A stretch of 64,000 nucleotides of DNA from a virus: positions 3,021 through 67,020 of IMG/VR virus record IMGVR_UViG_3300042887_001434; one strand, given 5' to 3'. The stretch's first letter is position 1; each line of letters begins with the position of its first letter. Below the pieces are notes generated by a model. The model saw only the letters and a list, made by a program, of their open reading frames with translations. It made no database searches and was not told the DNA's origin. Positions 8,013-56,613 of this stretch are shown here, in pieces. A program made the translations under genes and the position numbers.

Positions 8013-8944
8013 TCTTCTTGTTCCTTATTTTTTATGGACAACCTATTTTTTCTTTTAGCTTTGTTAATTGAAATAATACGATCCTGTTTTTCTTCAAACT
8101 CTTCTACAATATCTTCAGCATCTTCAACAGATACTTGTTTTGCAATATTCATATTATTATTTTTATTATTGTTCAACAATAAGTTAAATAAAGATTCATC
8201 TTTACACCCATGAATTACAACGCAATCGTCATTTAAAGTGTTATTGTAATGGTTGTCCCATGCTGAATTAGAAATAGAATCACATATAATTAAATCATTT
8301 TGTTTACGATAATTATTTGTTCTCCAGTTATTTTGAATTAATTTAGAATCATTTAATTCTTTTGTTGTATACCATTGGATTACAGAAGTCCAGTGTCTAT
8401 TAGTTAATGATAAAGAAGAAAGAACTGGAATGTCACAAATATTAATTGAGTAAACTCCAACGCTAGACATCTTAGGTCCAGAAATTGATTCTGGTAAAAG
8501 CTCCCCATTTTTCCCCTCGTAGTTACGTTCTTTAACTCCTAAGAAAATTTTAGGTGTTCTTTTTTCCCGAATAGCTTTAGTTGTGTCAGCATAGTATTCA
8601 GTAGAAATCGTGTCGAGCCAGTTAGGTTTAATTGGCATCGAATCTAATTCAAACCAAAAAAAGCTATCATGTTCTTTTTTTCCTTTCAAAAAAGCGCATG
8701 TTTGCTGGAAATAATAGTTACATGCCATCGGATAACCTAGCATGTTATCATTAATCAAATGAATCTTTGATGTTAGAAATAAATGCTTAACATCATGCTC
8801 AAGCCCTTCAATTTCATTTTGATTTTCTTTTGATCCAATAACTAATAGGTCATGGTCAGCACCAACTGGAAATTTATTTATGATAGATTTAAATTGTTCT
8901 ATCAGATGTTTGTCATGTTTTGATACAGGTATTACTAATAACAT
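8009..8944 (-). CDS. Putative GT-A-like glycosyltransferase or hypothetical protein
   Basis: N-terminal LLVIPV strand, FFWFELDSMPIKPNWLD (ExD motif), VIHGCKD C-terminal His motif. Confidence 0.45.
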   Translation of the reverse strand: MLLVIPVSKHDKHLIEQFKSIINKFPVGADHDLLVIGSKENQNEIEGLEHDVKHLFLTSKIHLINDNMLGYPMACNYYFQQTCAFLKGKKEHDSFFWFELDSMPIKPNWLDTISTEYYADTTKAIREKRTPKIFLGVKERNYEGKNGELLPESISGPKMSSVGVYSINICDIPVLSSLSLTNRHWTSVIQWYTTKELNDSKLIQNNWRTNNYRKQNDLIICDSISNSAWDNHYNNTLNDDCVVIHGCKDESLFNLLLNNNKNNNMNIAKQVSVEDAEDIVEEFEEKQDRIISINKAKRKNRLSIKNKEQEE

Positions 8945-8959
8945 ATTATTTTAAATTAC

Positions 8960-9247
8960 TTACCATTTAGTTTTATCTGCCCAATATGCTGCTGACATTT
9001 TTCCTTTTGCTATATTTTTAGAATGTCTTGCTTTGAATGATTCTCTGCGTTTTTTATCAGAAGAAGACTCGCCTTCTTTCTTTGGAGAACCAGATACTCC
9101 TTGTTGCCCAAATCGAATTGTTTTAACTTTAGATCCTTCTTTAGCTAAAACAACATGACTTTTAGTTGGATGACTAGGTGTACGCTTGGGTTTATTTACT
9201 CCAGATACACCAAGACGATCAATAGATGATTTAATAAGTTCACTCAT
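8960..9247 (-). CDS. Small basic phage protein
   Basis: KTIRFGQQG...RRESFKARH...SAAYWADKTKW, a pattern recognised from aquatic phages. Confidence 0.75.
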   Translation of the reverse strand: MSELIKSSIDRLGVSGVNKPKRTPSHPTKSHVVLAKEGSKVKTIRFGQQGVSGSPKKEGESSSDKKRRESFKARHSKNIAKGKMSAAYWADKTKW

Positions 9248-9390
9248 TGTTCATTAATGATTATAGTAATTTGCTGCCTTAACCAATCAGAAAAATTAAG
9301 TTTCTTTTTTAAAAGCAATGCTGCTCTGAATTTCATCCATTCAGAAGGCTTTAGTTTTGCAACTACTCTATGTGTTGATTTTTCTTCCAC
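9244..9390 (-). CDS. Small ribbon-helix-helix-like regulator (putative)
   Basis: Probable GTG start at 9390: HRVVAKLKPSEWMKFRAALLLKKKLNFSDWLRQQI fits strand-helix-helix; divergent from terL. Confidence 0.45.
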   Translation of the reverse strand: MEEKSTHRVVAKLKPSEWMKFRAALLLKKKLNFSDWLRQQITIIINEQ

Positions 9391-9469
9391 AAAACATATC
9401 CTACATAAAGTATATAAGTATGCAATAAAAAAATTGCAGTCACCTAATATATTTGATAATTTATAAAGC

Positions 9470-11287
9470 ATGACATCAGTTCCAATCTACGGACTCCCTA
9501 TTGAGGGATACATCCACCAGTATGACTTTAACTGGAAAAAAGGCACACATCAGATAGCTATCGAGCTTGCTATGTTTAGAGAAAAAATCACTAAACGAAT
9601 CCCTGCTGACATTGGTGGAGTTGATACATTCTTTCACTTTAAACGCATAGCCAAGGCATTTTGGCCTGAGAAAGACAATAAGGCTCCAGCTAATTTTATA
9701 TGGCATCCATGGGCAGATAGGATGCTTCAAGCTGCATGTAAGCACGATTACATAGCAATAGCAGGGTCAGGTGGGTTTGGTAAATCAGAAGCATTCGCTA
9801 TATGGGCTATTATTAATTACCTAGCAGATCCAGAGAATACCATTGTCCTAGCTACATCAACTACAATTAAAGCATCTAAGCAACGTATCTGGGGAAAGAT
9901 TGTAAAGTACTGGACTGTATGCGAAAAGCTAGGTCTTCCAGGTAAGTTAATCGACTCATTAAATACAATTAGGTACATAGACAAAAATGGAAAAGCTACT
10001 CAAGGTGACTTGTCTGGGATCACCTTAATTCCTGGTGAGAAAAAGAAAGAAAAGGATGCCACTGGAAAGATGCAAGGTATCCACCAAAAGAATGTTATCT
10101 TCGTAGCTGACGAGTTATCTGAGCTTTCAGAGGCTATTACTGAGGTTGCATTCTATAACTTGAGCAAAGGTTGCGAACGCTTTCAGTTTATTGGAATATC
10201 TAACCCTGCTTCATACGTCGATGCATTTGGTAAGTTTGCTAAACCAAAAGAAGGATGGGAAACAATAAACGTAGACGATGATGATTGGGAAACATCCCGT
10301 GGAATTTGCTTGCACTTTGATACTCTTAAAAACCCCAACATGATTGCTGGAAAGAAAGTTTATTCATGGATGGATGCTCCTGAAGATTTGGAAAAAGTTC
10401 CAGTTGAAGAAAGGAATACTGCTTCATACTGGAGGATGTATCGTGGATTCTGGTGTCCTGCTGGCGTGTCGGATCAAATCTATTCCGAGGTTGAAATACT
10501 TAATGCTAAAGCTACAGACAAAGCGATATGGTTGGACAATAACCTTGTGCGAGTTGCATTCCTAGACCCATCGTTTACTAATGGTGGTGATAGAACTATT
10601 CTTTATTTTGGAACAGTTGGAAAGTTATCTGAACCACATGGATTTAGTGGATTGCAATTTGACGAATACATTCAGTTTAGTGAGGATGTAACTGATAAAA
10701 CAATGACCAGATCACAACAGGTTGTTAAATGGTTTAGGAACGAATGCATTGTTAGAGGAGTTCAACCTAAAAACGCTGGATATGATAAGTCTGGTGCTGG
10801 TGGTCCTCTGGGTGACTTTATATCCGTTGCATGGTCGAAAGACGTGTTTGGTCTACAATTCGGTGGCAGGGCATCAGAAAAGCCTGTTAGCGCATACGAT
10901 CCAACTCCAGCACATGATAGGTATGTAAACCATGTATCTGAAATATGGTACTCAGCTAAAGAGTATATGCGAACTGGTCAGATAAAAGGTATCGGTTCAG
11001 ACCTTATGGTTGAAATGTGCCAACGTAAACTAGACCCCAATGGAGAAAAGAATCTCAACCTTCGTATTAAAGTTTTACCAAAGACAGAAATGAAATCTAG
11101 GTTTGGCATGTCACCCGACATTGCTGACGCAGGAATGGGGCTATTAGCCCTCGCAAGAGAAAGGTTGAACCTTGACTCATCTAATGCTACAAAAGCCTTA
11201 AATCCAAGTAATCAATCAACAAGTAAATCTTGGAAAACACTATTTGGGAAATTTGATATTTATACAAAACAAAATTTATTTATGTAG
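9470..11287 (+). CDS. terL: Terminase large subunit
   Basis: Walker A GSGGFGKS, Walker B IFVADE, ISNP motif, RNase H-like nuclease FLDPSFTNGGD and SPDIADA. Confidence 0.9.
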   Translation: MTSVPIYGLPIEGYIHQYDFNWKKGTHQIAIELAMFREKITKRIPADIGGVDTFFHFKRIAKAFWPEKDNKAPANFIWHPWADRMLQAACKHDYIAIAGSGGFGKSEAFAIWAIINYLADPENTIVLATSTTIKASKQRIWGKIVKYWTVCEKLGLPGKLIDSLNTIRYIDKNGKATQGDLSGITLIPGEKKKEKDATGKMQGIHQKNVIFVADELSELSEAITEVAFYNLSKGCERFQFIGISNPASYVDAFGKFAKPKEGWETINVDDDDWETSRGICLHFDTLKNPNMIAGKKVYSWMDAPEDLEKVPVEERNTASYWRMYRGFWCPAGVSDQIYSEVEILNAKATDKAIWLDNNLVRVAFLDPSFTNGGDRTILYFGTVGKLSEPHGFSGLQFDEYIQFSEDVTDKTMTRSQQVVKWFRNECIVRGVQPKNAGYDKSGAGGPLGDFISVAWSKDVFGLQFGGRASEKPVSAYDPTPAHDRYVNHVSEIWYSAKEYMRTGQIKGIGSDLMVEMCQRKLDPNGEKNLNLRIKVLPKTEMKSRFGMSPDIADAGMGLLALARERLNLDSSNATKALNPSNQSTSKSWKTLFGKFDIYTKQNLFM

Positions 11288-13327: not shown

Positions 13328-13953
13328 AGACCATGATTTTTCCAACAATAATCCATTCTTCTAAAATCTTGTTTTAATTCTTCAGGTAATCCTTTTTGTT
13401 GAACATCAACTGGAATATGCACTGCTGCCTTTAATGAACAACTACAGACTAGACACACACCAAGTTCTCCATCCCTACTTGTCTTTCTATTTCCAACAAT
13501 AGAATGGATGATTGATAATACTGCGGACATACACGCACCACAACCAAATTGCAATGTTCCATTCATTGGACAGGATGCACACATATCTGCTCTCCAATCA
13601 GCTTCCTTTTGAGACACGAAAGCTGGCTTACCAGACATTGTTTTTAATGCCCATTCTTTCATCATATTTAAAAATGATAAAGTTGCCTGTAATGTCAATT
13701 TCCTTCTTTGAATATTCTTCATGCTTGTTCTGATACATGCCTTCCCCCAATGAGGATTTTGCTTGCACATCTCAGACAGAAACTCTTCCTCCCAGACTGG
13801 CGATAACATTACACTATTTGCAAGTGAATGTTCAGTGTACGCTTTACGAATTGTTGGGTAATCGTAACTTTTAAATTCAACTCCAGTAACTGGATGTTTT
13901 ATTTTCCATCCACCATTTGGTGAATCTATTGTGTTTATTTCAAATTCAATCAT
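13324..13953 (-). CDS. Cys-rich hypothetical protein
   Basis: RADMCASCPMN, CGAC, CLVCSCSLKA, terminal CW. Confidence 0.7.
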   Translation of the reverse strand: MIEFEINTIDSPNGGWKIKHPVTGVEFKSYDYPTIRKAYTEHSLANSVMLSPVWEEEFLSEMCKQNPHWGKACIRTSMKNIQRRKLTLQATLSFLNMMKEWALKTMSGKPAFVSQKEADWRADMCASCPMNGTLQFGCGACMSAVLSIIHSIVGNRKTSRDGELGVCLVCSCSLKAAVHIPVDVQQKGLPEELKQDFRRMDYCWKNHGL

Positions 13954-16900
13954 TCAATCGACATTCGTTTTACTGCTCTTGTTGCACGTTTATTTGCATC
14001 TTGTGAGTATTCTTCAAGTTGTGATTGATACCTTGAAGCGTCCATTCTTTCAAGACTTTTACGACTTCTAAACATACTTTTACTAACATAATCCCCATAC
14101 GTTTTTGCGTACGTATAAAACTCTTCGTTTGTCATTGGACGTTCCAATCTCGCTTCAGCATTCCTTCTTGTGGGAATAGTTGGACCATCACCTTTACTTA
14201 GAACCAATTCATTAAGCTCATTCATTGGTGTATTTTTAGGAAAAGAAAACACCATTGGTACTCCTAACTTGTACAACTTATCTCCCCAATCGTCTGCACG
14301 TATTGGTTGTCCAAAAGCATTCAACGCTTTAGTTCCAATCATTGGTCCTACTATTGGTATGTTAGAATATATTGCTCCAGACATAGAAGACCTATCAATC
14401 GGATCATTAATAAAATCAGATATATTCCTAGCAAGGGATGTTCCAACTATAGGAATAAACGTCTTTCCAAAGTATCCAGCTTGAGATGCCACTTCTTCTG
14501 GAAGTTGACCAGCACGATTTGCGTTGAATAACGACTTACCAAATGCGGCGTATGGTCCACGTTGAGCTAATGCCAAGAATGCAGATCCAAGCATGACTGT
14601 AGCTTGATTCAAATCTGCTGGTTTCTTCTTAGCTTTATTCATTTGATTCCTTATATTCCAATCATCCAATGCTCCAGCAATTAAGATTGGGAAGAATATA
14701 GCCTCACCACCACGACCAATGTTAATAGGAATAACTGTATCTCCCATTACAATATGAATGCTGTATGGTTTCCATTTTTTGATCCACGAATCATAATATT
14801 GTTTATCAGCAGCAGCATCAGGACCATTACCAGTAACTACAATTTTAAACTTATCATCTTCTTCGTCATCTGTAGATGATTTCACTAATGCACCGAGTCC
14901 TAGCATTACTAGACTTCCAGCGATAGATTCAGTTAATCTCTGTCGGTATTGCAATTCATTTCCGAGGCTTAAAGAATACGATGATTCCATGCCTTTTGAT
15001 TTTTGATACTTGTCGCGGAATATTCTAAGGAATCCATACGGACTATACCATGCTGCGTTATGGAATGCTCTAGCTGGAACAAGGGCGAATCCATAGAGCA
15101 TCTTAGAGAATACTTGCATTAGTGGACCTTGTTGCGCCGAACTAGATGCTATTTGTTCTAAGAACTTAATTGGTAGATATGAAATCATCCCATCGTCAGA
15201 CAATCTTTTTTGCTCATTAGATAGTCCATCCATTGATATAGTTCTATTTCTACCAACAGATAATAACGCATCATTTAGTGCTGAGTTAATAACATCATTA
15301 ACTTTTTCAGTTTCTATATTTAAAGATGAAAGTTGTTTTCTGATTTGCTCCCTCATCTCCATATCAGCCAATACTCCAGCACGTTCTTTCTCCATGCCAC
15401 CAGCTATTAAACTAGCGTAAGTATTTCTCTTTGCTTGAAGTATTTGACGAGCAACTGCATTCCTTTTACTGCGAGGAATATTGCTTAAAGACATTGCTTC
15501 CATTGCATACCTATTAACAGCTTGATTCTCTAATGCAGAAATAGCACCTTGGTCTAATGCAGATAATACTCGTCCAGTAATTTGAGTCATGCCAACAAGC
15601 ATATCACGCATTCCTGCTGCACGATCACCATTCTTCCATTCCTTCTTGCCTTTATTATAAAGCTCTTTTAAGACGTTATTTCCATTTAGATATTCAACAA
15701 CGTCATTTGGATATACTTCATTTTTAAATGCATACTTAGTTTGGTTATACCAACTACGCATGCTATCAAGGAATGTGTCAAATGCTAATGGAATCCTAGT
15801 CGGATCAGTAAGAGCAAATCTTCCAATGTCTGTTACTAAATTACGAAGACTAAATCCTAATGGAGAAAATACGTTTACAGTTACAGTAGGTATACCCATT
15901 AAGGCTTGTCCCGTGTAGAACGCAGCCAGTGCTTGTTTGACTGTGACAGGAAGTTTTGTTTTAGAGATGATTTCATTCAACTCTTTCATTAACTCTGCTT
16001 TTTTTAAATCATCAGTTTCTTTGTTGTTAAGGATCTCATCTATCTCAGCAATCCTCCTGAAGTCAGCTTCACTAAATCCAGTCCATCCATTCTGTTTAGC
16101 AATGATGCTTTCAGTATTTTGTGTCGGATCTAATGCGCTTGTTCTTACTGCATTCAATACTTTCTTCAATGCGTCTTTAGCAAGTTGTCCATTCCTAGAC
16201 ATGTGATCTCTCCATGGAGATGTTTTAGAAATAGATTGCTCAAATGCCTTCTGTTTAGCCTCCGCTATCTTTTCAGCTATGATGTTATCATACAATCTAG
16301 CCGCACTCTCAGCTTGCTTCTCAGATAATCCAGCGGACATTAAATACTGACGAATAACTTCCTTTCTCCATTCTGGAGTGGATTGCTGTTGCAATGGAGT
16401 ATTCTTAATCATTTCAACAATAACTCCAAGAGAACCATTCTCAGCGGCAGATTCGATTAACTTGATCTCACGATTCATGTTGTTAATCTCATGCTGTTTC
16501 CATACTAAGTCAGATATTATTGATGCCCTTGTTTCGGATGCTCCAGCCTCAATAAGTTTTGCTGTAAGCATATTCTTCCATGCTTCCTTACGTCCCATAT
16601 CTGGACGTTGGCGTAAGTCTTGTTGAACAATAGTTCTGATGTTATTTTCTGCTTTCCTTGAAATAGGTTCAATTCCAGCTAATTTTTCTGAAAATGATTT
16701 TATAAGAGCGTCAGCTTGAACATTGGGCTTCTCTCTTTGTTCAATATCCCTATTCAATGCATTCCTCTCATGCTGCGTCCAAGTAATGTCAGCAAGTATT
16801 CCCGCATTAGATTCAGATACACCCACGTTAGTAAGTTTAGATATAAATGCTTCTTTCCAAGAATCTTTGTTATTTATATCTGGAGTTTTCTTTAAATCGG

Positions 16901-19900
16901 ATTGAACTATATCTCTAACTTTATTTTCTTGAGGTTTGCTGTCTGCCCAAATTCCATCTTGCATCATTGCCATTTTGTCAATAATTTGTTCAGCTTTAAA
17001 ATCCGAAGTCATTCTTTCTTGTTTCTTTGCCTCGGAAATAGCATTAGCAGCTTCTATTTTTGTTTTTTGAATTTGAACAAGATTATTTAATATATCATTT
17101 AAATATGATCTTAAATTATTATAATCTTCATCTATCTCAATTCCAGTCAATGATTCTTTAGATACTCCGTAAATCTTTTTAATCAATGAATCTACAATTG
17201 ATTCAGACTTTTGATTTATTCCATCATCAGATAATTTAGCTATATCAGATGCTGATGTGTTTAATTCCTTCATCTCGGAATTAAGTAACCTTTTCAACAT
17301 AACATCACTTACAGGCATATCGGTCTGACGTTGCATTGCATCATCCCATGCGGCTTGAATGGCATCATACTTATCGTTGATCGAATCTATTTCAGTTTCA
17401 TCTTCAGTGTTAGCCAATTCACTTTCACGACGAGATTGAATGTCTTCTGATATTATCTTATCAGCTTGGACTTGTTTATCTATGCTTAGTTTCTGCTCAT
17501 TTAAAATAGACGCAACCTTTTCAATGTCGGTCATCTTTGTGTTAGGTGGAGTTCCTTTTAATCCAGCTTTAACAAGTGCGTTCTTAACTATGTTTGCTAA
17601 CTCATTATTTTGAGCTTGGTCAAGTTCACCTAATGGGCCAGGTTTATTCTCTTTGTCACTTAGTGTTTTCCAAAATGTTGATTGCAATCCATTGGCTGAA
17701 TCTTGAACTAATGTATCCCTGTAGTTTGCAAGATTTCCATTTATTATATTTTGTACGTTTTCATTAACTGTAGTTACTTGCTTAACTTTTTTACTTTTAC
17801 CAAATAAACTATTTTTAGCTTTGTAAGCTACGTTAGTTATATTCTTTTTAGGATTGCTAGTTTTAGCGATAGCAGCATCAATATCCTTGCGTATATTTAC
17901 TCCCGTCTTACTTTCAACGGAAACAACGCTATCCAATATGTCAGCATTATCTATCGTTTCAGCTTTACCTGATTCTTTCAATGCCTCTTCAATTACGTTA
18001 ATTTGCTCTGTAGAGGGTTCTTTGGTTCCAAAGGTAGTTGAGGCTAGTTGTACAACTTCTCCCTTTCCTTGGGCTTGAATCGCGCCAATCATTGGGTTAT
18101 TGATTTTTGCAATAGCACCTAATGCTCTAGCTATATTAGATGAAGTTACATCTTTAATTCCAAGTGGAATATCATTAGCATTAAGTTTATAACGCTTTTC
18201 AAAAAATGAATCACCAGCAACAAGTAACTTATTAGAATATCTTTGTAATTCGTTCCTTAATATTTGAACTCCAATAACTTGCTTTATATCTGGATGAACA
18301 TCTTGATCTTTTAATTTAGATTGAATGTCTTCATTTAATTTAATCGCAAAATCATTATTGTTCCCATCAGTGAAATCAGTTAATGATTGTAGTAAATCAT
18401 ATGCTTTCTGAGTATTCTCGTCATTAAATTGAGTAGAGTCAAAGTAGTTCTGTCTTACTATATCTTGAACTATTTTCTCTCCACCAATAAAACTATTAAG
18501 TTCTCTTCCCGCTTCTTTTTGACCATGAACTTGCGCCTTTGCTTGTAATTTAAAATCAGTTCCATCTTCTCTAAGCATTTTCTTTCCACTAATGAAATCT
18601 TGTCGAATGGCATTAAGGACATTAAGCACAAACTTATCAGAGTCATTAACCTCATATTCAGTAGAGAAATATTTATTAAGGAATCTTTTAACTGCTTCAA
18701 CGAAATTTTGCCATTTAGATCTAATCTCAGGATTTTGTTCAAGCAGAGCTTGCCATGCTCTTATTACTTTTTCTTCATTCCTCAAATCAGGACTAAGTGC
18801 GCTATAGTTTTCTTCAACGTATTCAGATATAGCATCACGTTGTTCTTGAGTTAAATCATCCCAAAAACTTGTAAATATTTTTTGAAACTCAGGATCACCA
18901 AATGCAAAGTGACCTAACTCATGTCCAATTATTGCATCAATATTTACATCACGTTTAAAGTAAGCTCTATTTATCTCTATTTCGCCAGTATTTAAAACAT
19001 AGGATGCGTAGCTATCGTCTCCTATGTCATTTGTAAATATAACATTGCTAGGTATATTCCCTTTAAAGAAATTACGGACTCCATCTTCTAGTTCTTTTTC
19101 AGAATACAATTCCGATTCATTGATATTGTATTTAGATGCAAAATCAATTTTCTTTGAAATTTCTTCAATTAATTCAACATTTCCATTATCCCCCGCTTCC
19201 TTCATTTCAACTAATCCATTTTTAATGTAGTTGTTGATTTTTGTAAGAACTTCAGCAGATTTATATTTCTGTCTGTATTTAGCTTTATCTCTAGCTCTAG
19301 CGTATCGAATATCAGGTGTCTTTTGATTGAAGCGTTGTGATAATGGGATTACATTGCCCTGCTCATCGTATGTTACTGGGTCTGCGGATTTGATTTGGTT
19401 GGAGTCAAATGCAACAATTTCATAAACCTTACCATCAGGAAGGAGTGCAATAATACCATCATGGCCGAGTTCTTTTGCGCGATCCGATATTTGTTTTCCA
19501 TGTAGAATCTCATTATTTTTACCTCTTGCAATAATGCGCCAGTCATCCTTCAATGGGTTTTCCATTTTCAGATATGCTGAGATCACTCTTTCTTTCCCTA
19601 ATCCCGTGGAGTCTTGAGCGTATAGTCCAGCTAGTTTTTTGTTAGTAGCGAAATAAAACCCCTCTCCAGACTCCCCCTCATCACGCCGTTCGGATTTACC
19701 GATGTCAAAAACTGAAAACTCTTTTTTTGTTCCATGATAAACTGGGCCAAATGTATATCCAGCTTCCTTCGCGGCTTCATCCACCATCCTCTGTGCAGTC
19801 TCCATATCACCACTCTCAACTGCGGTAAGATACTCTGCATCTATCGTGGGAGATGCACCCGATTTTGCTTTGATTGTTCCAGCCCCTTCAACTCCACCTC

Positions 19901-22900
19901 TACTTGGATATACAGCTTTAAGTTTCTTGCTGCTCCTAGTTGTCTTGACAGGAGTAATATCTACAGACTCAACTACACTTACTTCCCCAGTACGTTCGTT
20001 CTTGATCTTGTAGTATTGCTCTCCTAGCTCCACGTCTCTAGCTGTCTGTGGTGTTACTTCTGTTATGACGAATGGTTGAGGTGTACTACCAGAACGAACA
20101 CGTTGCCCAACTTGTGGACCTGTTGGTGCTGCTGGAGTGGGTTGTTCTTGTGTTGGGTTTAATTGAGTTGGATCTTCTTTTATAGATTCTAATATAACAT
20201 TAGGATCATCTTCTTGATATAACGCATCAAAAATTGCTTTTTCTCTAGTTTTTCCCTTTGATACTCCATTAAGAATAGCGGATCTAACTTTGCTTGCGTC
20301 TGCTGTAACCTGAGTTTCTGGTGAGTTTTGTGAAACAATATCAATCAATGGAGATATATTTCTATCAGCAGCAGCACCAAGAAAATGAATTCTTGGAGGT
20401 TTAGATTCTTTTAGGAATGCAGCAAGATTTTCTCTACTTATTGCTTCTGCATTCGATGGGATTCCAACAATAAATCTAGTTGGATCAATATCTATACCTA
20501 ATGTATTTGATTTAAGTATTTCAATTATATTTGAATACGCATCAGATAATGATAAATCTCCTAATGGAATTGGAATGATTGGAACGCTTAAATCCATTGA
20601 TATAGATGTTGCTATCCAATTTTTATGTTTATTAATTAAATCCAATGATGCTTTTTGATTCCCAATAACATCAGGCATAACTAGCATCGGCTTAGGATAA
20701 TCTGTTTTTTCAACAACATTTACCTTGCTAATCTCGTCAATAATTAAATCATATTTTGATAAAATTTTATCGAAATCCAATGCTTCAACTGTTCTTCCTT
20801 GAGATTGTTCTTTAATTGATTTTTTAAAATTACTAAATGCACCAGAATCAATAAATACTTGCGTATCAAGATTAACAATAAAATCAGCTAATTCACGGAT
20901 TGTGTTTTTTGAAAGTAATCCTACATCAAATCCAATCCCATAATTTGCATGTCCAGCACGGGCATATGAACCTCGGCGCATATCACTCAATCCACTCATG
21001 CCAGATGCAAATCGAATTAGGTTTTTCTTAATATTTTCTCTTGCGCTATCAATGTCTTTAACAAATCCAAACTCCGTAGGAGTAGCTGGAGTTATTGTTT
21101 CCGATACTGCGGGGGTGGGTTCTGTTACAATGGGAGTCTCTGCGGATGGTTGAGATAGTTCAATGGTTTCTGATGGAGTTTTTAATACTTCGGTTACTAA
21201 TGATTTAGATTCGGCAATATCGTATATTGTTATAGAATTTCCATATACTGCATCAGTATCAAAAATATAAACCTTTTTTGCTGTTCCAGCAGGAACTGTT
21301 TGATTTGACGTAAGCGGATTGCTTTTAATATCCCTCGCTGCAATTATTCCTCCTGCTCCAGTTCTATTTCCAACCGCAATAGAACGCATTTCCCCATTCG
21401 TATCTTCAATTACTATTGCTCTTCTAGAAAAATCAGAAGAAGGAATAGGGATTTTTAAATCTCCATATTCTTTTTTAATAACAAGTGCATTTGTAAATGC
21501 GGGTCGAGATTTTTTTGATTTAGTCTTTTTACCAACTAAAATGCGATCTGGATCAAGTTGCTTTGGTAATTGTAGGTTTCCTTTATTTTTTCCAATAGTT
21601 GTAGCTCTAACGAATTCTTCGCTTGATGATTCAGCCATGTTTGCTGCAAATTGCAAATCAGGGAATACTGATAATGCTTGATCACCTTCCATGTTAAATG
21701 GTTTACCTACAGGCATTTTATTGTAATCAACTTGGCGAGGCTCAGTTTTATATTTTCCAGGTTTGTCTGGTATTCCTTTAGTTTCTAAGATTGTTACTGG
21801 CTTTTCAATAGTTGTCGCGGATACAGGTGCAACTTCGATCTCTGCTCGTCTTTCTTCTGGCGTTAGCTTTGGAAGTGGAGCTTGAGCTTGCGTTAATGCC
21901 GCTTGTCCATCTTCGTTGATGACGGGTTGACCTTTGACTATATCCACAAGACCAGATTGAGATAACTTAGTTATTTGTTCTGGCGTTGCTGTATTGCTTG
22001 ATACAGATTGAAGATCACTTACAAGTGGCGTTACTTGCCCTTCTTCTTGGCTTCTTTCTGTACCGAGTATGCTATCGCTAATGCCTGTTTCTGTGGTCGG
22101 TTGGATTTGAGTTCCGTCTTGAGGTTCTTGACGAATGCCTTCTGGCTGGATGATTTCTTGAGTGGCATATGGTTGAGTTTCTATTTGTTGTGCAACTGCT
22201 TGTTGCGTTAATGGGGCTTGTTCTACTGGGAGTGTTGCAGCTTCTGCGACAGGAGGAACTGCTGTAATATCTTCAGTAGTTGGTGTAGCTAATATTCCAC
22301 GTTCACCTTCCAATTGCGCTCTTGCTTCCTTATCTCCCATCCTTGCTCGTTGAGCAAGATCTCGTTTAGCTATTGATTCTTCTTCATTTTTACGAGCAGC
22401 TTCTTCCCTTAAAGATTTATTATTATCTGCTATTTCCCTGATTTGATCTTCATTAATGCCTTCGCTTTTAAGGTTATCAATATATATATCAGCAGCTTCC
22501 TCTGGTATTCCAGATTGAATAATAGCATCACGAAGTGGAATAACTTCAGTTTCAGCAGTTGGCGTAACGACTTCTTCTGCTGTAGGAGTCGTTACATCTT
22601 GCGGTTGAGTAGAATCAGAACGACCTTTTTCATATGATCTTTTGCGTTTCTCTACTTGAATAGCGTCCAATACTCCTTGGAACTCTACAGCTTTAGCTCG
22701 ATCATTAGGATCTTGTGACTCAAAGTATGCGTCCTTGTATTGTTGAACAAGTTTTTCAGCGTCCTGCTCGCGTGTATTTAAATCTTCTTCGGATAGATTT
22801 GCAGCTACTTCTCCTTTAGTAGTTGCAGTTTGTGTCTCAGCTTTTACTTCATTAATCTTCTTTAATGTCTGTCCACCAAGATCAGCAAGTTCTACAGCTT

Positions 22901-24008
22901 CTTCTTCCCTATCTACATTCAGATCATCAGATAGTTTTTTAGCAAGTTCTTGAGTGGTTGCTCGTGCTGTTTGAGGGGCATTGTTTTGTTCAAGTGTTTC
23001 ACTTAGGTTCAATATATCTTGATTAGCTTTTGCTTCAATTAACTTACGCTGGTTAGCCCTATCTGCAATCTTGCCTTGTAGAACTTCAATAGAACCAGTT
23101 CCAACTTCACCAATAACTTCAGCAAATACATCCTTGAGATTAACTTCATCTCCAGCAGCAACAGATCCTGCAACTTCACCACCACCACCAAGAACAGCTT
23201 GCGCTCCCAACTCAGTAAGAGCTTCACCAGTCTTTGTTGCGAATTTTTTACCAAGAACTTTCTCACCTTCCTTGATAATCTCGCTACCAAATACACGTCC
23301 TAGTTTACCACCGATACCAGCAGAGACAGCATCGAATGCAGCTATAGGTACACCACGTAAGAGTGCTTTCTCACGAATAGGAGCTAACTTGCCCTCATCA
23401 GAGAAGTAGCTTTGGATACTATTCGGGTCAGTAATATCCATGCCAGAGTTTTGTAACTCTTCAAGAATCTTGCTTCCATATTCAGTAGATAGCGAGCCAC
23501 CAAATGTTCCAGCTACTTGACCAGCAGTATAACCAATTCCAGTGCCAAGAACAGGCACTACAGATCCAACAGCAGCACCAACAGCACCAGCAGCCACACC
23601 AGCACCTAATGCTGGCAAGCTACCAGCTAAACCTTCACCGATAATGTTTGTTGTTACTTCAACTGGATTCTTTAAGAATGCACCAACGGCATCAATTCCT
23701 TCTGCCTTCTGATATTCAGCGTAACCAGGTGCAGCCTTCCTTGCTTGCTTTGCATATTCAAGTTTAGAAATCTGTTCAGCTTGATCTTGATCTACACCAC
23801 CAACTGCAAGTAATGCTTGCTTTGAAGAATCAAAAGCATTTTGTGCAGAGTTAGCTATACCTTGAAGTGTTCCAACTTCTTCTTCATCTTCTTCTAAAAA
23901 AGCGTCTGGATCAAATGCACTAGATGTGGCATTTTGATAACCGCTATTATTTAATGTTGATGTAGTTAAATCATCTTCTTGCAAGAAAGCATCTGGATCA
24001 AAAGCCAT
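13950..24008 (-). CDS. Giant polyvalent internal virion (ejection) protein with TGT-like, ADP-ribosyltransferase and zincin domains
   Basis: 3352 aa; Gly/Ala hydrophobic N-terminal segment; DSGAF...PDVIG...IHFLG...DAS (TGT-like); YHGT...GEGFYFA...AYLKMENP (ART of polyvalent proteins); HELGH zincin; helical C-terminus ending LNAFGQPI. Confidence 0.85.
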   Translation of the reverse strand: MAFDPDAFLQEDDLTTSTLNNSGYQNATSSAFDPDAFLEEDEEEVGTLQGIANSAQNAFDSSKQALLAVGGVDQDQAEQISKLEYAKQARKAAPGYAEYQKAEGIDAVGAFLKNPVEVTTNIIGEGLAGSLPALGAGVAAGAVGAAVGSVVPVLGTGIGYTAGQVAGTFGGSLSTEYGSKILEELQNSGMDITDPNSIQSYFSDEGKLAPIREKALLRGVPIAAFDAVSAGIGGKLGRVFGSEIIKEGEKVLGKKFATKTGEALTELGAQAVLGGGGEVAGSVAAGDEVNLKDVFAEVIGEVGTGSIEVLQGKIADRANQRKLIEAKANQDILNLSETLEQNNAPQTARATTQELAKKLSDDLNVDREEEAVELADLGGQTLKKINEVKAETQTATTKGEVAANLSEEDLNTREQDAEKLVQQYKDAYFESQDPNDRAKAVEFQGVLDAIQVEKRKRSYEKGRSDSTQPQDVTTPTAEEVVTPTAETEVIPLRDAIIQSGIPEEAADIYIDNLKSEGINEDQIREIADNNKSLREEAARKNEEESIAKRDLAQRARMGDKEARAQLEGERGILATPTTEDITAVPPVAEAATLPVEQAPLTQQAVAQQIETQPYATQEIIQPEGIRQEPQDGTQIQPTTETGISDSILGTERSQEEGQVTPLVSDLQSVSSNTATPEQITKLSQSGLVDIVKGQPVINEDGQAALTQAQAPLPKLTPEERRAEIEVAPVSATTIEKPVTILETKGIPDKPGKYKTEPRQVDYNKMPVGKPFNMEGDQALSVFPDLQFAANMAESSSEEFVRATTIGKNKGNLQLPKQLDPDRILVGKKTKSKKSRPAFTNALVIKKEYGDLKIPIPSSDFSRRAIVIEDTNGEMRSIAVGNRTGAGGIIAARDIKSNPLTSNQTVPAGTAKKVYIFDTDAVYGNSITIYDIAESKSLVTEVLKTPSETIELSQPSAETPIVTEPTPAVSETITPATPTEFGFVKDIDSARENIKKNLIRFASGMSGLSDMRRGSYARAGHANYGIGFDVGLLSKNTIRELADFIVNLDTQVFIDSGAFSNFKKSIKEQSQGRTVEALDFDKILSKYDLIIDEISKVNVVEKTDYPKPMLVMPDVIGNQKASLDLINKHKNWIATSISMDLSVPIIPIPLGDLSLSDAYSNIIEILKSNTLGIDIDPTRFIVGIPSNAEAISRENLAAFLKESKPPRIHFLGAAADRNISPLIDIVSQNSPETQVTADASKVRSAILNGVSKGKTREKAIFDALYQEDDPNVILESIKEDPTQLNPTQEQPTPAAPTGPQVGQRVRSGSTPQPFVITEVTPQTARDVELGEQYYKIKNERTGEVSVVESVDITPVKTTRSSKKLKAVYPSRGGVEGAGTIKAKSGASPTIDAEYLTAVESGDMETAQRMVDEAAKEAGYTFGPVYHGTKKEFSVFDIGKSERRDEGESGEGFYFATNKKLAGLYAQDSTGLGKERVISAYLKMENPLKDDWRIIARGKNNEILHGKQISDRAKELGHDGIIALLPDGKVYEIVAFDSNQIKSADPVTYDEQGNVIPLSQRFNQKTPDIRYARARDKAKYRQKYKSAEVLTKINNYIKNGLVEMKEAGDNGNVELIEEISKKIDFASKYNINESELYSEKELEDGVRNFFKGNIPSNVIFTNDIGDDSYASYVLNTGEIEINRAYFKRDVNIDAIIGHELGHFAFGDPEFQKIFTSFWDDLTQEQRDAISEYVEENYSALSPDLRNEEKVIRAWQALLEQNPEIRSKWQNFVEAVKRFLNKYFSTEYEVNDSDKFVLNVLNAIRQDFISGKKMLREDGTDFKLQAKAQVHGQKEAGRELNSFIGGEKIVQDIVRQNYFDSTQFNDENTQKAYDLLQSLTDFTDGNNNDFAIKLNEDIQSKLKDQDVHPDIKQVIGVQILRNELQRYSNKLLVAGDSFFEKRYKLNANDIPLGIKDVTSSNIARALGAIAKINNPMIGAIQAQGKGEVVQLASTTFGTKEPSTEQINVIEEALKESGKAETIDNADILDSVVSVESKTGVNIRKDIDAAIAKTSNPKKNITNVAYKAKNSLFGKSKKVKQVTTVNENVQNIINGNLANYRDTLVQDSANGLQSTFWKTLSDKENKPGPLGELDQAQNNELANIVKNALVKAGLKGTPPNTKMTDIEKVASILNEQKLSIDKQVQADKIISEDIQSRRESELANTEDETEIDSINDKYDAIQAAWDDAMQRQTDMPVSDVMLKRLLNSEMKELNTSASDIAKLSDDGINQKSESIVDSLIKKIYGVSKESLTGIEIDEDYNNLRSYLNDILNNLVQIQKTKIEAANAISEAKKQERMTSDFKAEQIIDKMAMMQDGIWADSKPQENKVRDIVQSDLKKTPDINNKDSWKEAFISKLTNVGVSESNAGILADITWTQHERNALNRDIEQREKPNVQADALIKSFSEKLAGIEPISRKAENNIRTIVQQDLRQRPDMGRKEAWKNMLTAKLIEAGASETRASIISDLVWKQHEINNMNREIKLIESAAENGSLGVIVEMIKNTPLQQQSTPEWRKEVIRQYLMSAGLSEKQAESAARLYDNIIAEKIAEAKQKAFEQSISKTSPWRDHMSRNGQLAKDALKKVLNAVRTSALDPTQNTESIIAKQNGWTGFSEADFRRIAEIDEILNNKETDDLKKAELMKELNEIISKTKLPVTVKQALAAFYTGQALMGIPTVTVNVFSPLGFSLRNLVTDIGRFALTDPTRIPLAFDTFLDSMRSWYNQTKYAFKNEVYPNDVVEYLNGNNVLKELYNKGKKEWKNGDRAAGMRDMLVGMTQITGRVLSALDQGAISALENQAVNRYAMEAMSLSNIPRSKRNAVARQILQAKRNTYASLIAGGMEKERAGVLADMEMREQIRKQLSSLNIETEKVNDVINSALNDALLSVGRNRTISMDGLSNEQKRLSDDGMISYLPIKFLEQIASSSAQQGPLMQVFSKMLYGFALVPARAFHNAAWYSPYGFLRIFRDKYQKSKGMESSYSLSLGNELQYRQRLTESIAGSLVMLGLGALVKSSTDDEEDDKFKIVVTGNGPDAAADKQYYDSWIKKWKPYSIHIVMGDTVIPINIGRGGEAIFFPILIAGALDDWNIRNQMNKAKKKPADLNQATVMLGSAFLALAQRGPYAAFGKSLFNANRAGQLPEEVASQAGYFGKTFIPIVGTSLARNISDFINDPIDRSSMSGAIYSNIPIVGPMIGTKALNAFGQPIRADDWGDKLYKLGVPMVFSFPKNTPMNELNELVLSKGDGPTIPTRRNAEARLERPMTNEEFYTYAKTYGDYVSKSMFRSRKSLERMDASRYQSQLEEYSQDANKRATRAVKRMSIE

Positions 24009-26305: not shown

Positions 26306-28033
26306 CTATATTGTGTAGGCTGCTGATGCTGTACTAGCAGCAACAACAACAAATCTTCCTTCTCCGTAGGTAACGGATCGCCAAGTCGCCGAAGGCGCGG
26401 GTGTTGCGGCAACCCATGTTACCCCGTCTTCGCTGTATGCTGCGGCGAATGATGATAAAGTAAAAAATCTTCCCCCTCCATATGTTATTGAACTCCAACC
26501 CTGCGAAGACGGGAGTGTAGCGGCAACCCATGTTACTCCATCATCGCTATATGCTGCGGATGTTGAGACAGTAGCAACCGCAACAAACCTACCTTCTCCG
26601 TATGTTACGGAACTCCAACCCTGCGAAGACGGGAGTGTAGCGGCAACCCATGTTGCTCCGTCTTCGCTGTATGCTACTGCGCTTGAGTTTTGAGCAACAG
26701 CAACGAATCTGCCTTCTCCGTAGGTAACGGATCGCCAAGTCGCCAAAGACGGCAATGTAGCGGCAACCCATGTTACTCCATCTTCGCTATATGCTGCCGA
26801 TGTTGAACCAGAAGCAACTGCAACAAACCTTCCCTCTCCGTAGGTTATTGAATACCAATTAGCAGAACTTGGCAATGTAGCGGCACTCCATGTTACTCCA
26901 TCTTCGCTGTATGCTGCCGATGTTGAACCAGAAGCAACTGCAACAAATCGTCCTTCTCCGTAGGTTACGGATTGCCATTCTCGTGTAGACGGCAATGTAG
27001 CGGCAGTCCATGTCACCCCGTCATTGCTGTAGGCTGCGGAGGTTGAACCACCAGGTGAGCCAGTAGCAACCGCAACAAATCTGCCCTCTCCGTAGGTTAC
27101 GGAACTCCAACTCTGCGAAGACGGAAGTGTGCTTAAAGCCCATGTCAGCGTTTTCGTATATTCTAAATATGCTGCTGCGTTTGAGTTTTGAGCAACAGCA
27201 ACGAATCTGCCTTCTCCGTAGGTTACGGAAATCCAACTCGCCAAAGACGGCAATGTAGCGGCAACCCATGTTACTCCATCTTCGCTATATGCTGATTTGT
27301 TTGAGTTAAAAGCAACTGCAACGAACCTACCTTCTCCGTAGGTTCCGCGCCATCCAGCAGAACTTGGCATTGTAGTAGCAGTCCATGTTATTCCATCTTC
27401 GCTATATGCTGATTTGTTTGAGTTAAAAGCAATAGCAACAAACCTTCCCTCTCCGTAGGTTATTGAATACCAATTAGCAGAACTTGGCAATGTAGCGGCA
27501 CTCCATGTTATTCCATCTTCGCTATATGCTGCCGATGTTGAACCAGAAGCAACTGCAACAAATCGTCCTTCTCCGTAGGTTACTGAATGCCAAGCAGCAG
27601 AACTTGGCATTGTAGTAGCACTCCATGTTATTCCATCTTCGCTATATGCTGCCGATGTTGAACCAGAAGCAACTGCAACAAATCGTCCTTCTCCGTAGGT
27701 TACTGAATACCAAGCAGCAGAACTTGGCATTGTAGTAGCACTCCATGTTATTCCATCATCGCTATATGCTGCGGCGTTTGACGCAACTGCAACAAACCTT
27801 CCCTCTCCGTAGGTTACTAAATACCAATTAGCAGAACTTGGCATTGTAGTAGCAGTCCATGTTATTCCATCATCAGAATATGCTGCTGCGGTTGAGTTAT
27901 AAGCAACTGCAACAAACCTTCCCTCTCCGTAGGTTATTGAATACCAATTAGCAGAACTTGGCATTGTAGTAGCAGTCCATGTTGCTTCATTTGATGTATT
28001 CCCAAGCATTAATTTTCTACTTGTAAAACTCAT
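26306..28033 (-). CDS. Repeat beta-propeller protein (Asp-box/BNR-like), putative receptor-binding protein
   Basis: 14 repeats of about 40 aa, TW...PSS..W.S.TYGEGRFVAVA...AYS.DG; ATG at 28033 preferred. Confidence 0.8.
   Translation of the reverse strand: MSFTSRKLMLGNTSNEATWTATTMPSSANWYSITYGEGRFVAVAYNSTAAAYSDDGITWTATTMPSSANWYLVTYGEGRFVAVASNAAAYSDDGITWSATTMPSSAAWYSVTYGEGRFVAVASGSTSAAYSEDGITWSATTMPSSAAWHSVTYGEGRFVAVASGSTSAAYSEDGITWSAATLPSSANWYSITYGEGRFVAIAFNSNKSAYSEDGITWTATTMPSSAGWRGTYGEGRFVAVAFNSNKSAYSEDGVTWVAATLPSLASWISVTYGEGRFVAVAQNSNAAAYLEYTKTLTWALSTLPSSQSWSSVTYGEGRFVAVATGSPGGSTSAAYSNDGVTWTAATLPSTREWQSVTYGEGRFVAVASGSTSAAYSEDGVTWSAATLPSSANWYSITYGEGRFVAVASGSTSAAYSEDGVTWVAATLPSLATWRSVTYGEGRFVAVAQNSSAVAYSEDGATWVAATLPSSQGWSSVTYGEGRFVAVATVSTSAAYSDDGVTWVAATLPSSQGWSSITYGGGRFFTLSSFAAAYSEDGVTWVAATPAPSATWRSVTYGEGRFVVVAASTASAAYTI
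26320..27985 (-). repeat. About 120-bp tandem coding repeats
   Basis: Near-identical units, e.g. 27541-27600 and 27661-27720 differ by one base. Confidence 0.9.
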
Positions 28034-28037
28034 TGTA

Positions 28038-30509
<2,472 letters not shown>

Positions 30510-30511
30510 AG

Positions 30512-31477
30512 TTATCTTCCTTGCCAAAGGTTATTAAATTGCATTGTAGCTGGATCTATGTTTAATGTCCACTTAGAACCACCTCTAATTTCTTTATTTT
30601 CTCCGTTTAATAATTGCAATGCTTTATTAAAAAACATTTCTGATCTTTCTAAGTCAGCTTCATCTTCAAACTTTAATGAAGTAAGCATATTTTTTAATGC
30701 GCCTAAATTTGAAATAATAACTTCATCTGTATCAATTATACATGGAACATATCTTCTCTTACATAACGCATCAATATAATCAACTTCTGGTTCATTTGGC
30801 ACTGAATACCTATGATAACTTGCTGTTGTTTCAGATGAATCATATGAACCTATTAATGTCTGGTTTAAACTATCAACTGCATAAAGGTTAATGCGACCAA
30901 ATGTTATTGGCTTTTGGAACATCGTTATAGTTCCATTAAAAACCTGAGTTGTATTTGAGTTTGGAAAAGATAACGTGTGCGTAATTGTAACGGGATTATC
31001 ATTAGCATCTTTGCCTTGTATTACAACGCTATTACCTGAATCAAGATTGCTTTCTATTTCTATTTTTAATGTACAAGATGTATATGGAGAATCTTTGAAT
31101 GTGCAGAACCCATCTCCAATATCATTTATAAATGTATTATTGTATCCATATCTAGGCCAATGAGATGATGACCATAAATCAGTTGTAGCATTTAAATATG
31201 AAAACCAGTTATTGTGTATTTGAATTGGTCCAGACGCTTGATCTTTAACCCACTTAGATGCTAATATAGAAATGAAATTTCTAGGTAAAGTAATTATTCC
31301 ATCAGGAGATAAGAATCTAACAGGAGATATTGTTCCATTCCATTTTCCACTATTAATAAGTCTTTCTTGAGCTAAATTTAAATATGAATTAAATTTATCA
31401 ATATTAAATTGATTATCAATTGATGGAACAATTGATGAATATAATTGTTCTCTAGCTTGTCCTAATGTAATTCGCAT
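30512..31477 (-). CDS. Putative tail adaptor/tubular protein
   Basis: [10 protein letters not shown] helix near the N-terminus and helical C-terminus typical of head-tail adaptors; position in tail module. Confidence 0.55.
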
Positions 31478-56086: not shown

Positions 56087-56613
56087 AGCTGATTTATATT
56101 TTTGCTCACCCACTCTGCCACACGAATAGCCTGTGGAGTTTCTTCTTTTATGATGGACTCATAGCACACATCACCATATGCACGGAATATCTGAATGTTA
56201 TTTAGCAACCATCCCATGTGGTAGCCTTGACGCATAAAGTCACGGAACTTCTCAGTCATTACTTTATCGAGAACATAATTCCTGCATCCGAATTTATGCT
56301 CCCAATACTCTTTGGGTTGGCAGTTGATATGCCCATGACCACCTTGCCCTGGAAGTGCCGCAGAAAACATAATGACTGGAGCTAATTCTATCAGCTTATC
56401 AACCACATAATCCGCTTCATATGGGTCGATATGTTCCGCAACCTCCAAGCAAAGTGCCATGTCATATCTTTCCTCAACAGAGTAATCAAACATGCTAACA
56501 ACCTTTTCAGGACACAATGGGTCAGGATCAATGCCATCTACGATAAATCCACAATCTCGCAGTGCCTTCACGTAGATTGCTGGACCACAACCGACATCAA
56601 TTATTCGTTTCAT
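56077..56613 (-). CDS. Class I SAM-dependent methyltransferase
   Basis: IIDVGCGP, DMALCLEVAEHI, FSAALPGQGGHGHINCQ. Confidence 0.88.
   Translation of the reverse strand: MKRIIDVGCGPAIYVKALRDCGFIVDGIDPDPLCPEKVVSMFDYSVEERYDMALCLEVAEHIDPYEADYVVDKLIELAPVIMFSAALPGQGGHGHINCQPKEYWEHKFGCRNYVLDKVMTEKFRDFMRQGYHMGWLLNNIQIFRAYGDVCYESIIKEETPQAIRVAEWVSKNINQLCK

Follow-up and report, generated by a model that had tools for sequence, protein, structure and literature searches.

Residues ~983-1278 of a 3352-aa phage protein appear to form an intact member of a new, phage-type subfamily of DpdA, with the triosephosphate isomerase (TIM) barrel fold of the tRNA-guanine transglycosylases (TGTs). The protein is encoded by a single minus-strand open reading frame (ORF) at 13950..24008, as established from the list of ORFs and its translation, in a stretch of 64,000 nucleotides (the window) that represents bases 3021-67020 of the virus record IMGVR_UViG_3300042887_001434, which is 67,020 bp long and has direct terminal repeats. 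An original prediction, made from the letters alone, had placed a TGT/DpdA-like base-exchange domain within this ORF, and the ORF that carries the domain is borne out by the analysis described here. The best explanation, to which a probability of about one half is given, is that the domain is a DpdA-type DNA transglycosylase that would use host 7-deazaguanines and would be either delivered with the invading DNA or expressed early from it.

Fold, predicted active site and relation to known DpdA proteins

The DpdA-like barrel (20175..21062 on the minus strand, as are all other features of the giant protein) was delimited with an AlphaFold2 model and with hhalign alignments. The model was built for a 309-aa piece, residues 982-1290, aligned with 50 short relatives; adding 981 to the piece numbering gives the numbering of the full protein. 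Its predicted local distance difference test (pLDDT) score is 91.9 and its predicted template modelling (pTM) score 0.89, and its eight strands alternate with helices in a (beta/alpha)8 barrel. A TIM-barrel fold had been named as the test of the original prediction, with which this confident barrel agrees. Model confidence drops in the linker downstream of the barrel. The conserved residues of the family, when the model is read together with the family alignment, are all located at or just past the C-terminal ends of strands.

With regard to solved structures, the Foldseek check proposed originally gave TIM barrels, as anticipated, but the matches in the PDB were weak and generic, with class II aldolases first (E 9.2e-6) and ahead of the TGT of Z. 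mobilis, which appeared at rank 10. A second search, independent of Foldseek and covering 48,161 chains, in which Z differences of less than one unit are ties, returned an aldolase (3pm6, Z 14.5), the archaeal TGT ArcTGT (1iq8, Z 14.3), a TGT (3unt, Z 13.7), Cap10 (9ntn_B, Z 13.5), DpdA (7ui4, Z 13.2, with a root-mean-square deviation of 3.7, 222 aligned residues and 14% identity) and QTRT2 (6fv5, Z 11.7), the remaining entries down to rank 50 being mostly other TIM barrels (Z 11.2-14.0). ArcTGT, TGT, Cap10 and DpdA are therefore among the best solved-structure matches, in line with the likeness that had been claimed. Among predicted viral structures, the top match is a member of the same family, named as an ART-PolyVal-like domain-containing protein (E 1e-12, 27% identity), and 7 of the top 36 matches are named queuine/queuosine tRNA-ribosyltransferase or tRNA guanine transglycosylase. 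By fold alone, the modelled domain is a TIM barrel that is nearest to the TGTs or to the class II aldolases.

A phmmer search of 1.84 billion cluster representatives recovered 424 proteins with the domain at E<=1e-3, of which 169 were found at E<=1e-10 and 46 at E<=1e-30. Residue conservation was counted in 218 aligned domains, in the numbering of the 309-aa piece. P203, H227, L229 and G230 are present in all 218 domains, followed by D132 (217/218), D73 and P131 (216/218 each), G75 and D256 (215/218 each), G135 (211/218), G169 (210/218), A76 and A208 (207/218 each), Q137 and P165 (205/218 each), G22 (204/218), S21 (203/218), Q167 (198/218), S74 (197/218) and R261 (188/218). Position 77 is F in 200 domains and Y in 14 more, which gives F/Y in 214/218. 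The interval first proposed for the domain, 20190-21020, corresponds to residues 997-1273, and the five motifs described in it are all found where they had been placed and in the order claimed: VFIDSGAF at residues 1051-1058, with DSGAF at exactly 20835-20849, LVMPDVIG at 1109-1116 (20661-20684), IVGIP at 1180-1184 (20457-20471), RIHFLG at 1206-1211 (20376-20393) and VTADAS at 1234-1239 (20292-20309). As the same residues make up the conserved core across the 218 domains, these motifs go beyond chance.

The DpdA of Salmonella offers a guide to the roles of these residues. Its Asp95 has been described as the acid/base, Phe99 as stacking on the base and Asp256 as the nucleophile, and the three Asp are stated to be invariant in TGTs and DpdA (Gedara et al., PMC10164549). 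In addition, Asp130 and His181 contact the Watson-Crick edge, Asp95 is found just before the beta3/alpha3 insertion of this bacterial DpdA (bDpdA), and residue 256 opens the beta8/alpha8 insertion (PMC10164549). In the AlphaFold2 model, D1054 is the final residue of strand 3, D1113 follows strand 4 and D1237 lies within strand 8, a placement at strand ends like that of Asp95, Asp130 and Asp256 in bDpdA. The alignment counts also give the three Asp in the order of the superfamily, with an aromatic residue four positions past the first. Judged from these alignments, D1054 would match the acid/base Asp of DpdA, D1113 its base-binding Asp and D1237 its nucleophile.

Each of these elements has a counterpart in phage DpdA. 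The DSGAF motif (D1054-F1058, 20835..20849), predicted to supply the acid/base Asp and, at +4, the base-stacking aromatic residue, aligns with the DSGAF of phage DpdA. P1112-D1113 (20670..20675), just past strand 4, would provide the base-binding Asp and aligns with the Asp of the phage 'lDvIGD' motif. In strand 7, H1208-F-L-G1211 (20376..20387) aligns with 'Hg.G' of phage DpdA and with 'HlLGG' of DpdA4, the archaeal-virus subfamily that corresponds to DUF6610 and adjoins FolE, QueC, QueD and QueF (Cui et al. 2023, PMC10516641). The predicted nucleophile lies in the A-D1237-A-S stretch of strand 8 (20292..20303), which aligns with 'SvDS' of phage DpdA and 'SID.N' of DpdA4. A further position, alignment column 167, is occupied by P1148 in this protein (20565..20567) and by His in phage DpdA; across the 218 domains of the family the residue is Q in 198 cases, P in 11 and H in 9, and Pro is shared by the query and its nearest relatives, P0003-P0006.

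Family profiles were also compared. The 218 domains were aligned by hhalign with nine phage DpdA proteins (Knocker gp3, Godines gp2, RHph_I36, CAjan gp35, MS1 gp6, R31B, phiSM, NP1 gp34 and Sulfitobacter M39), which gave 96.0% (E 4.3e-9) over 138 columns, residues 69-258 of the piece, against 2.5% (E 0.018) for a reversed-decoy control. In this alignment, D73 and D132 fall opposite the Asp of DSGAF and that of 'lDvIGD', respectively, D256 opposite the Asp of 'SvDS', and both H227 and column 167 opposite a His. The likeness to phage DpdA is thus significant at the level of profiles and runs through all three catalytic Asp. In the same test, phage DpdA reached 25% (E 7.7e-4) with bDpdA-type proteins, 2.8% with bacterial TGT and 0.1% with DpdA4. 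By this crude hhalign measure, the family seems to be no more distant from phage DpdA than the accepted DpdA subfamilies are from each other.

The new domain resembles phage DpdA (DpdA1/DpdA2, as in CAjan, 9g, NP1 and the mycobacteriophage cluster with Godines and Knocker) in being a small TIM barrel without Zn. Of the 9 phage proteins, 7 have DSGAF and an eighth has DSGAY, and the Asp past strand 4, the strand-7 His and the terminal S-x-D-S/A are common to both groups. The original prediction had pointed out that no CxCxxC was visible; there is indeed no Cys in the 309-aa piece, but this is no anomaly, since C.C..C is found in 0/9 phage DpdA. On the other hand, the family is too distant from phage DpdA to be detected by a hidden Markov model (HMM) searched against sequences, the model of family alignment A1 reaching 11.2 bits at best against nine reference proteins in hmmsearch. 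Phage DpdA has His at the strand-5 base contact, whereas the new family has mostly Q and this clade P, and the family has conserved residues of its own, namely S-G (21-22), G-x-Q (135-137), P-S-N-A (203-208) and R261. Furthermore, the new family occurs in ORFs of at least 1600 aa or on plasmids, whereas phage DpdA is usually, though not always, found beside folE/queCDE.

DpdA4 (DUF6610, PF20314; Halovirus HVTV-1 gp69) also shares HxLG(G), S-x-D-x-N and the lack of a Zn motif with the new family, and its strand-3 F-x-D is collinear, although it has F-I-D-M-D-W in place of DSGAF. When the 218 domains were compared by local hhalign with a DpdA4/DUF6610 alignment (HVTV-1 gp69 with 19 relatives, plus 4 other phage proteins), the match reached 86.3% (E 4.7e-6) and was confined to strands 4-8, a stretch of 131 columns; the reversed template gave 0.1%. 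Another DpdA4 alignment gave 73.8%, and direct matches to DUF6610 were weak (4 of 51 relatives, best E 0.0026). HGTV-1 (NC_021328) has no DUF6610 match. In Mycobacterium phage Knocker, gene 1 (1-1317), annotated as 'ParB-like nuclease domain protein', matches residues 98-301 of HVTV-1 gp69 (28% identity, E 6e-9) and is located directly upstream of FolE and the canonical DpdA; Knocker may thus encode two TGT-fold proteins or a ParB-DpdA4-like fusion. DUF6610/DpdA4-like domains are also fused to a GNAT acetyltransferase in five clusters of ~350 aa (P0369-P0373), which echo the TGT-GNAT fusions mentioned in PMC12839542.

The remaining members of the superfamily differ more from the new domain. 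Bacterial DpdA (S. Montevideo, 7UI4), which acts with DpdB and DpdC, has a CxCx2Cx22H Zn site and a large beta8/alpha8 insertion, both lacking here. TGTs, whether bacterial TGT or archaeal ArcTGT, have a Zn subdomain, tRNA-binding insertions and an N-terminal lid, all of which are lacking as well.

Occurrence of the module in viruses and on plasmids

A near-complete domain is present in 219 proteins, with the query and gene fragments counted among them; 62 exceed 1500 aa, 20 have 600-1500 aa and 137 have at most 600 aa. No name beyond 'hypothetical protein' is attached to the 88 mid-length relatives. A scan of viral contigs gave 28 loci, and the survey of homologues for fusion context that had been suggested at the outset shows the barrel in ORFs of at least 1603 aa in 27 of them (many cut by the locus edge), with one exception of 601 aa. 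DSG[AG][FY], PD and HxLG are kept in 28/28 viral relatives, and the position of the barrel within the viral proteins ranges from residue 111 to beyond 3300. ART-PolyVal, an ADP-ribosyltransferase (ART) domain, is found in 12 of 29 records and exceeds the cut-off in 8 of these, always in giant ORFs, and two giant relatives carry LPD1/3/5, RadC, inorganic pyrophosphatase (InPase), GGDEF and ART-PolyVal. Fusions of InPase to the barrel are found in P0322 and P0020. A genome-locus search with family alignment A2 returned 2 loci only, and a search with PF23859 in 301 genomes of one class returned 1 match.

The module also exists on its own. A 256-aa homologue from Pseudomonas, a standalone protein, matches 46 plasmid records, 31 of them from Pseudomonas; mobility typing classed 18 of the 46 plasmids as conjugative, 3 as mobilizable and 25 as non-mobilizable. 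On pKF707, the neighbours are DUF4942, KleE, a TrfB-related protein, ParA/ParB, an 'antirestriction protein' and KfrC. On pG20, they are a cytosine methyltransferase, ParAB and a Y-family polymerase, with MobA/TraI ~5 kb off, and on the P. aeruginosa plasmid NZ_CP095924 a cytosine methyltransferase and a gene of the 3'-phosphoadenosine 5'-phosphosulfate (PAPS)-reductase family. The barrel locus of pPALA50 (8867-9667) has a ParB-N protein, an SprT-domain protein and, directly downstream, a phosphoribosyltransferase. An N6 methylase, DndB and a PAPS-reductase-like gene surround the Pseudoalteromonas locus, and Rep3, a C5 methylase and MTS+DUF4942 the Alteromonas locus. A methyltransferase or DUF4942 gene thus lies within ~10 kb in 5 of 6 neighbourhoods, as a raw count over these six loci. 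The standalone member on a P. aeruginosa plasmid (7989-8807) is annotated as 'phage tail protein' and the CP044547 member as 'molecular chaperone DnaJ', both of which are probably annotation errors.

The strongest contextual argument for DNA as the substrate comes from the fusion of the barrel to DUF6884 and from the company of ParB/DndB-type genes. DUF6884 is joined to the barrel in four proteins of ~700 aa (P0345/348/350/351). In P0345, DUF6884 is matched at E 2e-17 with its CxxxK and LSAxxG motifs kept, the barrel occupies 262-669, and a YaaA match falls below the threshold (E 2.3e-5). Moreover, in a 91-kb phage record with terminal repeats (G354), a single 2521-aa ORF encodes the barrel (locus 10001-10789) and, ~106 aa downstream and in frame, DUF6884. 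According to the Pfam curators, DUF6884 is related to YaaA, has a cleft that binds DNA and is predicted to flip bases (PMC11701544). DpdC, which turns dPreQ0-DNA into dADG-DNA, is DUF328/PF03883, of the YaaA family (PMC5699537, PMC12839542), and DpdB is ParB/DndB-like (PMC5699537). The pairing of DpdA with DpdC therefore seems to have been recreated by fusion, with ParB/DndB-type neighbours kept.

Proposed mechanism and competing explanations

In the favoured explanation, catalysis, the DNA substrate, the host base supply, packaging or ejection and the effect on restriction are all inferred, the chemistry by homology. D1237 would attack C1' of a flipped-out deoxyguanosine, and D1054 would protonate the departing guanine and next deprotonate the incoming 7-deazaguanine base, with D1113 reading the base edge and F1058 stacking on the base. 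Overall, guanine in the DNA would be replaced, by double displacement, with a 7-deazaguanine made by the host as the mobile element enters. In the phage, the module, placed between flexible Pro/Thr linkers and near an ADP-ribosyltransferase and a zincin, would act at the start of infection and would perhaps be cut free; on plasmids, the same module would be a separate early or establishment gene. The modified bases put into the invading DNA would then blunt restriction.

The bases, of the preQ0/preQ1 type, would be drawn from the queuosine pathway of the host, a supply that is proposed because this phage and the related viral records are without base-synthesis genes. The absence of Que genes noted in the original prediction extends to the whole 67,020-bp record, in which the Pfam models of TGT, QueC, FolE and QueD had 0 matches, as had those of DUF6610 and PAPS reductase. 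DpdA-only phages exist, and the DpdA of phage 9g, alone in E. coli, inserted dPreQ0 into plasmid DNA from host preQ0, at 0.03-0.3% of G (PMC6884629). Packaging of the giant protein and its ejection with the DNA are suggested by analogy, from its likeness to polyvalent proteins and from the position of its gene among late/structural genes.

A broader proposal, held more tentatively, is that a missed DpdA subfamily serves as an entry-phase weapon. Phages would inject it as polyvalent cargo and conjugative plasmids would express it from their establishment regions, in both cases to write host-made 7-deazaguanines into the arriving DNA, and in some lineages the attached DUF6884 would convert the inserted base.

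Several observations weigh against a DpdA-type DNA transglycosylase. The domain has no relevant match in Pfam, NCBIfam, PHROGs or PDB sequences, and it is missed by the models PF01702 (TGT), PF23859 (DpdA) and PF20314 (DUF6610) at E up to 10. With hhalign, the family reached ~1% against a 20-sequence alignment of the PF23859 (bDpdA) type and 5.6% against 31 bacterial TGT, both non-significant. In a tblastn search of 50,697 GenBank phages, the domain, the plasmid homologue and the C-terminal 700 aa all went unmatched. Among the 28 related viral records, of which 17 have a completeness of at least 90%, none encodes QueC or QueD. An insertion level of 0.03-0.3% may be too little and too slow for entering DNA. 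bDpdA requires the ATPase DpdB (PMC10164549), and no partner of this type was identified in this phage. Since Pro occupies the Q/H base-contact column, base recognition or activity in the Pro-bearing clade may differ. Lastly, the InPase fusions and the phosphoribosyltransferase neighbour are a hint of phosphoribosyl pyrophosphate (PRPP) or pyrophosphate, that is, of nucleotide rather than DNA chemistry.

The negative profile comparisons have to be read with their controls. DpdA4 against TGT gave 0.8% by local hhalign, whereas this link has been reported at 92.5% by HHpred (PMC10516641); the local comparison is thus insensitive, and its negatives reflect low sensitivity and exclude nothing. Alignment A1 compared by hhalign with single bDpdA-like, TGT and DpdA4 sequences gave 0.2-5.7%, single-sequence templates being too weak, and the A1 profile found only chance matches to SSB among PDB sequences (E >=0.24). 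PF01702 and PF23859 have no match across the whole genome, and no member of the 51-sequence family alignment matches either model at E <=1. The family is without any Pfam or NCBIfam model and is uncatalogued.

It is rather unlikely that the same base exchange or excision is directed at another target and disarms host defence, the candidates being tRNA position 34 (G or Q), Dpd-marked host DNA or a deazaguanine-protein conjugate (the NDG mark of type IV CBASS, the cyclic oligonucleotide-based antiphage signalling system). The best profile match is the DNA-acting phage DpdA, that with tRNA TGT being non-significant; the domain is without tRNA-recognition insertions and, having no Cys, without a Zn subdomain. 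The fusions to the base-flipping DUF6884 and the methylase, ParB and DndB neighbours on plasmids also point to DNA.

An improbable reading is that of a TIM-barrel enzyme with unrelated chemistry, for example an aldolase-like enzyme or one whose substrates are free nucleotides or compounds derived from PRPP, in which DSGAF, PD, HxLG and DA[NS] would reflect distant ancestry only. Class II aldolases lead in Foldseek and tie in Z, InPase is fused to the barrel in two proteins, a phosphoribosyltransferase lies directly downstream in pPALA50, and the curated TGT and DpdA models miss the domain. Yet the profile match to phage DpdA extends from strand 3 to strand 8, with all conserved acids paired, and queuine/TGT names recur among the viral structure matches. 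Class II aldolases use three His as metal ligands, whereas the family has one invariant His. The pattern of conserved residues and the phage DpdA profile match led to the rejection of a class II aldolase assignment.

A DNA glycosylase that only excises guanine or a modified guanine, leaving abasic sites as early damage to host DNA, is highly improbable. A nucleophile and acid Asp pair could excise without a second base, there are no base-supply genes, and the same polypeptide holds other predicted host-directed effectors. The attack on host DNA that the original prediction had entertained is hard to square with plasmid carriage: standalone copies occur on 46 plasmids, of which 18 are typed as conjugative, and such plasmids need a living recipient. 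In addition, the whole base-pocket set is conserved, with Q/H at its variable column in 207/218 domains, which suggests that a base is bound and exchanged. Hardly credible is an inactive relic, spacer or purely structural module, for which the Pro at column 167 in this clade and a GC content below that of the flanks, as of a mobile cassette of unproven use here, could be cited, as against every other conserved residue being kept, the motifs being intact in all 28 viral relatives and the model being very confident.

The giant protein, its genome and biological meaning

The gene at 13950..24008 is assigned to the giant multidomain, polyvalent type from its ORF, its translation and its ART-PolyVal match in Pfam. 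The Pro/Thr linkers claimed on both sides of the barrel are present: upstream, residues ~940-981 (21066..21191) are Pro/Thr-rich, with a P+T fraction of 0.35 over residues 940-985, and downstream, residues ~1279-1325 (20034..20174) are rich in Pro, Thr and Gln, with a P+T fraction of 0.31 over residues 1272-1325. ART-PolyVal follows at residues 1423-1543 (19380..19742; PF18760, E 1.7e-19, 71.4 bits, cut-off 31.2) and is the sole domain matched in a Pfam scan of the 3352-aa protein. A motif search located a HELGH motif of the zincin metallopeptidase type at residues 1696-1700 (18909..18923), in a region without a match to any Pfam model. The domain thus lies within a giant protein of the polyvalent type, with ART-PolyVal and HExxH in the same polypeptide. 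Peptidases of the HELGH type have been proposed to cleave polyvalent proteins into units (Iyer et al. 2017, PMC5512222).

At the N-terminus, a Gly/Ala-rich hydrophobic segment at residues 133-158 (23535..23612) is the sole 19-residue window in the protein with a Kyte-Doolittle mean of at least 1.6, and it overlaps a weak PHROG tape-measure match (residues 118-179, E 2.3e-4). Transmembrane segments were sought at the C-terminus and none were found at the Kyte-Doolittle threshold used. The acidic motif AFDPDAFL occurs twice at the N-terminus, at residues 2-9 (23982-24005) and 31-38 (23895-23918), and might be a capsid or portal targeting signal.

The DNA of the domain differs in composition from its surroundings. 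Its guanine plus cytosine (GC) content is 0.32 overall and 0.284 in the core (20450-20949), compared with 0.372 for the ORF and 0.39 for both 500-bp flanks, and the GC skew is +0.006 in 20001-22000 against about -0.12 to -0.16 in the adjoining bins. The lower GC content and shifted skew suggest that the barrel is a cassette of different origin that was shuffled in.

The giant gene belongs to a long minus-strand block that also holds a collagen-like tail-fibre gene (28038-30527), and the large terminase, TerL, is encoded on the plus strand at 9470-11287. There are two collagen-repeat, tail-fibre-like genes in all, at 219-2027 and 28038-30527 (PHROG tail fibre, E 1.6e-69 and 2.2e-55), the second of which also has a Pfam Collagen match. 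A 582-aa protein at 26306-28054 has many short repeat-like Pfam matches (EPTP, DUF6242, DUF4982) in no single clear stretch and may be a virion protein of the beta-propeller type. At 56610-57728, a 372-aa glycosyltransferase matches phrog_3408 nearly end to end (E 1.7e-181) and might modify DNA or a surface.

A packaged DNA-modifying enzyme is known in DarB of phage P1. As for a TGT/DpdA domain, the original prediction had supposed that it was undescribed as ejection-protein cargo, and no paper found in a literature search reports it from polyvalent proteins, ejection proteins or the leading regions of plasmids. The protein resembles the polyvalent proteins of Iyer et al. (2017) in its giant multidomain layout, ART-PolyVal and HExxH, and in its relatives with LPD1/3/5, RadC and InPase; many polyvalent domains are also described there as occurring solo, as the barrel does on plasmids (PMC5512222). 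The main text of that study is without the terms TGT, queuine, deazaguanine, barrel and glycosylase, and 40 uncharacterised LPD domains (LPD1-40) are defined in its supplements; the barrel module may be one of them, with no predicted function. A survey of jumbo phages mentions both deazaguanine systems and polyvalent proteins, separately. DpdA has been proposed as the signature protein of 7-deazaguanine DNA (Cui et al. 2023, PMC10516641), and surveys of this kind find it together with, or by way of, synthesis genes (PMC6884629, PMC10516641). The subfamily is proposed to have been overlooked because it never travels with deazaguanine synthesis genes.

The proposed activity offers a function for a further module of polyvalent proteins, which are poorly understood. 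Were the target instead tRNA or a defence protein, the module would be a new kind of anti-defence enzyme. If the domain is active as proposed, 7-deazaguanine modification of DNA would be wider than has been counted, large Pseudomonas plasmids included, and it would be deliverable as a pre-made enzyme. This leads to testable predictions on restriction evasion by phages and plasmids, among them the plasmids of clinical Pseudomonas isolates. If true, packaged or leading-region methyltransferases would gain, in this module, their first counterpart that acts by base exchange.

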